A DNA stretch of 64,000 nt, taken from the IMG/VR virus record IMGVR_UViG_3300017700_000931, positions 32,001 through 96,000 of that record, one strand, 5' to 3'. Under the pieces are notes generated by a model. It saw only the letters and a program-made list of their open reading frames with translations, had not been told where the DNA came from and searched no databases. Position numbers and translations under genes: made by a program. Below are positions 37,055 through 37,733 of the stretch, one piece after another. Source of the stretch: a virus. Lineage: Duplodnaviria; Caudoviricetes. How positions within the stretch are numbered: the first letter of the stretch is position 1; every line of letters begins with the position of its first letter.

Positions 37055-37733
37055 TTATTTTAAAAGCTGAATTTTTCCTCTTAGGATATCTTTCAATTTG
37101 GCAGTTTTATTAGTAATATGGTCAACTACGATATCATCCTTTACACGATATGTTCTACGTTTATCACCACGATTACCAACCCCAATCTGATTTCTACGTT
37201 CTTTAACCTCTTCTTGGTCATGTCCGGTTTTATAAAACGTATTAACACGTAGTGTTATTTCCTTAAAGGCTGCTTCTTTATTTTTATGTTGGTCTCGGCC
37301 ATCACGAACCACTCTGATACCTGTTGCATTATGTGTCATGATAACACACGAATCAGTAGTATTTTTATGTTGACCGCCACTTCCAGTTCCTCTAGTAAAT
37401 TCAATACGGACTTCATCGTGTCTGATTTCGACATCCTTATATTGTGGTTTATCTAAAATTGCTACTGTGATTGATGAAGTTTGAATACGACCCTTCTTTT
37501 CTGTTGGAGGGATACGTTGCCACCTATGGTTGCCTACTTCATTGTTAAATATTTTTTTTACACCAGACCCGCTAAAGGCATAGACAGACAAATCCTTCTC
37601 TGTCTTCAACTAACATTCAGTTAATGTTGTTAATCTTCGCTGTTTTGATGTAGATATCTCTCATATCTCCCACCAATAACTTAGCATCTTTGCCACCTTC
37701 GGCATCTCTGATTTCTAAATAAATCGTTTCCAT
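37055..37733 (-). CDS. RF1-type peptide chain release factor lacking domain 1, interrupted by UGA (codon 39) and a +1 frameshift at CUU-UAG-C
   Basis: Frame 0: LEIRDAEGGKDAKLL..; +1 frame: SGSGV..HRWQRIPPTEKKGRIQTS (PxT), GSGGQHKN (GGQ), RRTY. Confidence 0.85.

Follow-up and report, generated by a model that had tools for sequence, protein, structure and literature searches.

A phage gene for an RF1-type release factor, probably gated by an in-frame UGA and a CUU-UAG-C frameshift site

Programmed frameshifting within a release-factor gene is a textbook peculiarity of bacterial RF2. PrfH (RF-H) is a release-factor homologue that lacks domain 1 and is paired with RtcB. The RF2 gene, prfB, carries the autoregulatory arrangement SD-N3-CUU-UGA-C, in which a stop codon directly follows CUU and the rest of the protein lies in the +1 frame. 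In a survey of 2025 with more than 12,000 genomes, UAG was absent among 8,164 prfB motifs and no programmed shift was found in prfA (PMC12421855). The Shine-Dalgarno (SD) element is not indispensable for this device, as prfB sites lacking it work in Flavobacteriales, with about 7% shifting in F. johnsoniae (PMC10798248). Outside bacteria, the class-I release factor of Mimivirus and Megavirus (R726/mg280) is produced through one frameshift and one readthrough, as verified experimentally, a design suggested to buffer strongly against excessive expression (Jeudy et al. 2012, PMC3521657). Stop-recoded phages reportedly keep RF1 or RF2 genes in the standard code beside suppressor tRNAs (bioRxiv 10.1101/2021.08.26.457843; PMC13037316), an association included by Borges et al. 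in a 'code change module' where in-frame stops control expression (bioRxiv 10.1101/2021.08.26.457843).

The gene described here belongs to a tailed phage (Caudoviricetes) and was studied within a window of 64,000 nucleotides, the whole stretch of DNA that was analysed (positions 32,001 to 96,000 of IMG/VR record IMGVR_UViG_3300017700_000931). The source is the genome of a jumbo phage, a single contig of 362,532 bp that is flanked by direct terminal repeats and rated complete, with 32.7% G+C and 57 tRNA genes. The gene begins with an ATG at 37733-37731 on the minus strand (N-terminal residues METIYLEIRDAEGG...) and runs for 38 codons in frame 0 until a TGA at codon 39 (37619-37617), which has an A at +4 and an ATG immediately 3'. 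The same frame continues up to TGC CTT (37580-37575), where a second stop, the TAG at 37574-37572, directly follows the CTT (37577-37575) and precedes a C at 37571. From AGC (37573-37571) onwards the protein is encoded in the +1 frame, which contains the motifs PPT (37510-37502) and GGQ (37378-37370). When TGA is read as Trp and TAGC as Ser, the joined product has 225 amino acids, with the shift site at codon 53, whereas gene callers report only two ORFs, one of 38 residues and another of 184 starting at TTG 37609 (Table 1). This arrangement is probably that of one gene for a 225-aa RF1-type factor with two programmed obstacles, a readthrough of UGA39 and a +1 slip at CUU-UAG-C. The original prediction had already noticed the frame-0 stop at CTT TAG C, the +1 reading collinear with RF1 and the intact GGQ, and this layout is confirmed. 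The length of about 225 amino acids given there also holds, but it needs readthrough of TGA39, which had been left unmentioned: CUU-UAG-C is not the single obstacle, since the UGA at codon 39 also bars frame 0.

Table 1. Elements of the release-factor locus and its surroundings (positions in the window)
Feature	Position	Strand	Remarks
RF gene segment 1: ATG and 37 codons (LEIRDAEGG...; helix alpha-5 of RF domain 2), then in-frame TGA	37617..37733	-	Pfam PCRF positions 101-141
RF gene segment 2: 14 frame-0 codons (MLVEDREGFVCLCL), then TAG 37574-37572	37572..37616	-	collinear with in-frame relatives (GFVVM-stop-LTG)
Candidate shift cassette TGC CTT TAG C: P-site CUU, A-site UAG, +4 C	37571..37580	-	without SD and without conserved downstream structure
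RF gene segment 3, +1 frame: 172 codons with Gln72, PPT and GGQ, ending at TAA 37057-37055	37055..37573	-	Pfam PCRF and RF-1; best match in NCBIfam, PDB and Foldseek is RF1
Terminator-like hairpin just 5' of the RF gene	37766..37789	-	
Terminator-like hairpin directly 3' of the TAA of the RF gene	37028..37052	-	
tRNA-like element, 66 nt, without D arm, loop CUCUAAA (CUA)	35523..35588	-	Rfam tRNA 23.7 bits, E=0.44, below gathering score
Pth2-like peptidyl-tRNA hydrolase gene, in-frame TAG at codon 4 (35492-35490)	35148..35501	-	Pfam PTH2 29.9 bits, cut-off 23
M42/M20-like peptidase	39539-40351		
tmRNA	41052-41434		89.7 bits
ClpP	41508-42236		
DnaJ	43272-44318		

Judged from sequence and structural modelling, the product is an RF1-type class-I release factor made up of domains 2-4 only. 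It contains the Pfam domains PF03462 (PCRF) and PF00472 (RF-1), with the GGQ at residues 119-121, and its scores are far nearer to the NCBIfam model prfA (187 bits) than to prfB (94 bits) or prfH (75 bits). In this regard, the residues for stop-codon recognition are the ones of the RF1 set: PPT (residues 75-77), Q72 (the Gln of HRWQR) and T85 (the Thr of QTS) align with the PAT, Gln and Thr of E. coli RF1, which makes a specificity for UAA and UAG plausible. The match to prfA is limited to model positions 105-333 of 347, in agreement with the expectation of a factor of this type without domain 1, and neither the domain content nor the score (cut-off 400) corresponds to a full-length RF1. A similar boundary is seen in the PDB, where the sequence matches residues 111-340 of E. 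coli RF1 (E=2e-38). Immediately 5' of the gene there are a terminator-like hairpin and RNA genes; the stretch from 37797 to 38720 is rich in hairpins, shows no convincing ORF and includes a tRNA-Met (38116-38188). An AlphaFold (AF2) model built from an alignment of 35 family members has pLDDT values above 90 at residues 1-90, both recoding sites included, and its closest folds in Foldseek are ribosome-bound RF1 chains. As for PrfH, the phage protein shares with it the absence of domain 1 and the conserved GGQ, but it keeps the PxT loop, stands much nearer to RF1 and has no RtcB among the neighbouring ORFs; with 74.8 bits against a cut-off of 166.65 for TIGR03072, this identity was rejected.

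The likeness of the shift site to that of prfB is immediate: in both cases a class-I release-factor gene has a stop directly after CUU, a C at +4 and the remainder in the +1 frame, and distant relatives of the phage gene even have GGAGG 3 nt upstream. There are also clear differences. The phage-borne factor is RF1-type, its stop is UAG, which among its relatives may be replaced by UGA or UAA, and its site lies in domain 2 (codon 53), whereas the prfB site falls in domain 1 at about codon 25. Moreover, the window's site lacks an SD about 3 nt before the CUU, as had been anticipated; none of the six unique contexts at the equivalent position of its relatives has one, and the genome itself is without SD signal. 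Such a site is nonetheless credible, since prfB sites lacking an SD do shift in Flavobacteriales (PMC10798248). The nearest parallel to a doubly recoded gene is R726/mg280, which likewise encodes a viral termination factor with two internal stops dealt with by readthrough and frameshift, although that factor is eRF1-type and belongs to eukaryotic viruses, whereas the phage gene is bacterial RF1-type and known from sequence alone.

Two disruptions within 16 codons could also be expected from a decaying pseudogene or an assembly error, but this is extremely unlikely here. The TGA and the CTT-TAG-C are found in identical arrangement in three independent sequencing runs (L100-L102), which excludes the assembly indel considered as a possible refutation of the original prediction, and both signals persist in two loci with 62-66% protein identity (L103 and L105, the latter on a contig of 352 kb). 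Furthermore, purifying selection is evident on all segments of the gene: the upstream 52 frame-0 codons give pN values of 0.09-0.41 against pS values of 0.18-0.73, like the downstream part, and dN/dS is well below 1 on either side of the junction. The alignment of homologues, proposed as a check at the outset, shows that relatives keep the same heptamer, and the exact CTT-stop-C motif is seen repeatedly in the family. In a large protein collection, over 50 clusters, some of them with members on contigs of 220-370 kb, start with Y-[AV]-F-S-G, the signature of the +1 frame, which is encoded by TAT GYC TTT AGC GG. The sequence identity in three runs, together with the CTT present in all 45 unique shift contexts, makes chance an unlikely origin for the site.

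A second objection is that the real product could be the 184-aa protein from TTG 37609, or one made from ATG 37616 by termination-reinitiation at the TGA-ATG, with the first 38 codons forming a separate or untranslated segment. Although the 184-aa ORF is what gene callers annotate and an ATG does stand directly 3' of the TGA in this gene, we consider this very unlikely. At the protein level, codons 1-52 of frame 0 are conserved and line up with in-frame relatives, whereas the +1-frame reading of the overlap (MKTEKDLSVYAF), which would be the N-terminus of a TTG product, is not conserved, indicating that the latter is not the selected reading. Relatives, moreover, have no start codon after the TGA. 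Codons 1-52 also encode the GG-x-D tip of helix alpha-5, the element used by release factors to read the first stop base.

How general this design is was approached by classifying 80 viral loci found by a family-alignment search, taking as site B the position of the window's CTT-TAG-C and as site A the position of its TGA39 (RRW|RVE in RF1). The clade of the window's gene (48-74% identity, in AT-rich genomes) and its allied loci amount to 38 of the 80, and 36 of them have a stop at site B, either as a shift site or as an in-frame stop one codon earlier; of the two exceptions, L048 has an upstream TGA only and L055 is unreadable. Within this group, CTT-TAG-C with a +1 shift occurs in nine loci besides the window's and CTT-TGA-C in one, whereas in-frame stops at or near site B are TGA in 24 loci, mostly exactly one codon earlier, and TAG in four. 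The CTT-TAG-C heptamer is identical in L001, L002, L020-23, L032, L038, L040, L043, L050, L051 and L100-L105, with CTT TGA C in L017/L052. In the alignment, the in-frame stop falls on the Cys codon (TGY) preceding the CTT of the shift type, and some of the in-frame genes read TGA CTA AGC GG, that is, the shift cassette minus one T. A further in-frame TGA is present upstream in many genes of the clade. On the other hand, a few relatives at 52% identity (P0082, P0084 and P0107) are uninterrupted. A quick tree groups the window's gene weakly with L043, L103 and L105; its resolution is too low to count the interchanges between shift and in-frame forms, and a single origin of the site-B shift is possible.

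More distant relatives (41-49% identity, 40 loci) shift into the +1 frame at site A, where a full prfB-like cassette is found: typically GGAGG, 3 nt, CTT and the stop, which is TGA in 32 loci, TAG in six and TAA in two. Of the 39 unique site-A contexts, 33 have an SD-like G-rich element 3 nt upstream, in contrast to site B. Across both sites, CTT precedes the stop in each of the 45 unique shift-site contexts, and no gate has a T at +4. The mechanism of prfB is what this constant CTT, the +4 context and, where lineages use one, the SD all point to. This family also explains a systematic annotation artefact: short-contig relatives with in-frame TGAs (P0002-P0047) are called as 225-aa proteins through code 4, with Trp at both TGAs, whereas the long-contig versions of the same relatives are cut to 160-186 amino acids by gene callers.

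Synthesis of the full product would then require a readthrough of UGA followed by a +1 slip at CUU-UAG-C. UGA39 may be read by near-cognate tRNA-Trp, as suggested by the ancestral Trp at this position (the TGA aligns with the Trp of the RF1 motif RRW) and by the lack of any opal suppressor detected in the genome. At UGC CUU UAG C, the peptidyl-tRNA-Leu on CUU would re-pair with UUU in the +1 frame during a slow decoding of the A-site UAG, and decoding would resume at AGC. The yield of full-length protein is thereby expected to fall when termination is efficient at UGA (by host RF2) and at UAG (by host RF1 and by the phage factor, if the latter is UAA/UAG-specific), and to rise when termination at these codons is slow. 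As the product depends on two inefficient events one after the other, very little of it would be expected, a point that counts against this otherwise best explanation. Other ways across the stops were examined. Selenocysteine at the TGA was judged unlikely: Cys codons are aligned with it, but a TAG and a Tyr codon share these positions, all of them single-base neighbours. Transcriptional slippage was rejected, with no homopolymer at the shift site and an unconserved A8 run that lies beyond the stop, and for translational bypass no matching pair of take-off and landing codons was seen by eye. No stimulatory RNA structure is conserved downstream of the site (alifold energy -0.18, z-scores near 0).

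The phage genome uses the standard code. ORFs predicted with code 11 span about 95% of large stretches of it, and of its 284 long ORFs, TGA closes 35 and TAG 23, nearly always with another stop within a few codons. Such ORF coverage, stop usage and short extensions argue against TGA or TAG as sense codons (codes 4 or 15), and the long TGA-containing ORFs that might be taken as evidence of a different code prove to be low-complexity antisense frames. The standard code likewise holds in four relatives, for which 100 kb each were examined. No other genes interrupted by stops were found in the phage genome. ARAGORN called no suppressor tRNA in it, neither was an opal suppressor or a homologue of the tRNA(UCA) of a relative detected. 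This relative (G001, L120) encodes at 239866-239941 a tRNA(UCA) of the opal-suppressor type in an otherwise standard-code genome, and its RF gene has two in-frame TGAs. There are some other odd tRNAs in these phages. Genes of 80-89 nt for class-I identities (Met, Cys, Asn, Ile and Trp) lie at 303-389, 1330-1416, 24292-24380, 24919-25003 and 25930-26009 and may hold introns or long inserts, whereas outside the window, at 25456-25530 of the phage genome (G000), ARAGORN reports a 2-base anticodon 'ga'.

Close to the RF gene, at 1.5-2 kb, there is a pair of elements also concerned with UAG. The first is the tRNA-like element, whose acceptor stem has 7 bp and whose T arm is good; it shows a C31-A39 mismatch, is located in front of the Pth2 gene and is not called by ARAGORN. 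It looks homologous to the full-size tRNA(CUA) that ARAGORN does call in relatives, in a syntenic position 1.5-2 kb downstream of the RF gene and with the same loop and C31-A39 mismatch. The second is the Pth2 gene itself, which has no canonical start for 90 codons past its TAG and represents the sole amber-gated start of the phage genome. The sequence M-x-TAG-I-N, in which TAG is the third or fourth codon, is kept in G001, G002, G004, L002, L003, L007-9 and L011-12, and at least 10 loci, including one with the CTT-TAG-C design in its RF gene, have an early-TAG Pth2 directly after a tRNA(CUA). In this line, phage suppressor tRNAs could be supposed to decode the stops as a local change of code, with the CUA tRNA-like element reading UAG-C as a quadruplet and no slippage in the P site. 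The tRNA(CUA) of the relatives, the tRNA(UCA) of one of them and the need for amber suppression in the adjoining Pth2 gene speak for it, as do the C31-A39 mismatch of all these tRNAs, which could widen the anticodon loop, and the 4-base anticodons 'ccta' and 'agac' called by ARAGORN in L010 (1340-1416) and G002 (5320-5393). We regard this reading as quite unlikely, however, because the invariant CTT and the site-A SD are explained by a slippage from CUU to UUU instead, the window's element falls below the Rfam threshold and this genome has no UCA tRNA that we could find. Triplet amber suppression cannot stand in for the +1 shift either, as a TAA closes frame 0 eight codons beyond the UAG; for the same reason, an amber-suppressor-type tRNA nearby would send the frame-0 reading of UAG to a dead end, which complicates the circuit. 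In G002, a second RF-like gene containing GGQ (at about 5648) adjoins the odd tRNA.

The locus is best read as a programmed stop-codon gate on the phage termination factor, and the purpose of such a site may be to serve as a gate or a negative feedback on a potentially toxic protein. Closure of the UAG gate could come from the factor itself together with host RF1, and that of the UGA gate from host RF2, an arrangement that fits both a negative feedback and a double gate. A feedback through the RF1-type activity of the product is thus plausible for this gene, and the match that had been predicted between the stop and the presumed specificity of the factor would fit here, where a UAG coincides with RF1-type residues; it is not, however, a rule of the family, in which UGA gates most relatives. 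In genes with the same PPT and Gln residues UGA is the usual gate, standing at 32 of the 40 site-A shift sites and at the majority of in-frame stops, and no correlation was seen between the stop of the gate and the recognition residues. UGA should not be read by an RF1-type factor. Self-feedback can therefore not be the general logic, unless the specificity of these factors is broader.

Tentatively, the gate might instead sense host release factors or the stage of infection, so that the phage factor would be made, as a back-up or a timer, only when the activity of host RF2 and RF1 drops, for instance late in infection or in a host response. In favour of such a function are the dominance of UGA gates among relatives with RF1-like recognition residues, the UGA gate of this very gene, which should be unreadable by its product, and the neighbouring genes, as tmRNA, Pth2, ClpP and DnaJ have roles in translation rescue or proteostasis. 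The tmRNA, ClpP, DnaJ and peptidase genes lie within 7 kb of the RF gene (39539-44318). The UAG and UAA gates of this gene's clade and of eight site-A loci, on the other hand, fit self-feedback too, and both functions are not mutually exclusive.

As for the host, a member of the Bacteroidota is plausible, in keeping with the original prediction. The basis for it is the absence of SD enrichment at gene starts throughout the genome (5% against a background of 4%), the A-rich leaders and a phage-encoded TonB-dependent receptor (Plug and beta-barrel; 32220-34193, minus strand), which suggests a Gram-negative and possibly Bacteroidota host. In a comparison with genomes aimed at the host, the sole close match was a mis-binned contig of 1.6 kb in a MAG from Lac Pavin sediment.

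No account of a recoded RF1-type gene in a phage turned up in full-text literature searches, and the design is apparently undescribed for RF1-type factors. Three features are added by this case: a UAG cassette without SD that occupies a second site, the exchange of this cassette for in-frame stops, and an association with a CUA tRNA and an amber-gated Pth2. The code change module of Borges et al. also brings together phage RF1/RF2 and a suppressor tRNA with in-frame stops that control expression, but there a stop is reassigned genome-wide, whereas here the code is standard and it is the RF gene itself, along with Pth2, that is recoded (bioRxiv 10.1101/2021.08.26.457843). It is conceivable, as a more speculative proposal, that a suppressor tRNA for amber (and sometimes one for opal), the Pth2 with its amber gate and the RF1-type factor with its stop gate form a self-contained module that sets the decoding of UAG and UGA in the infected cell, with selection acting on the gate itself and lineages switching between readthrough and +1 shift and among UGA, UAG and UAA. 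If true, the module would be a regulated, partial code switch and contain a natural frameshift sensor responsive to RF1.

A conserved CUU-UAG-C in a phage RF1-type gene would show that the frameshifting device of release-factor genes arose or moved more than once and works without an SD, and reporters and synthetic circuits would gain from it a natural frameshift element sensitive to RF1. The gates also account for errors of annotation, namely the 'RF' ORFs of 160-186 amino acids on long contigs and the false code-4 calls on short ones. Moreover, the finding would show that bacterial viruses, like the giant viruses of amoebae, hold their own termination factor under stop-codon control.
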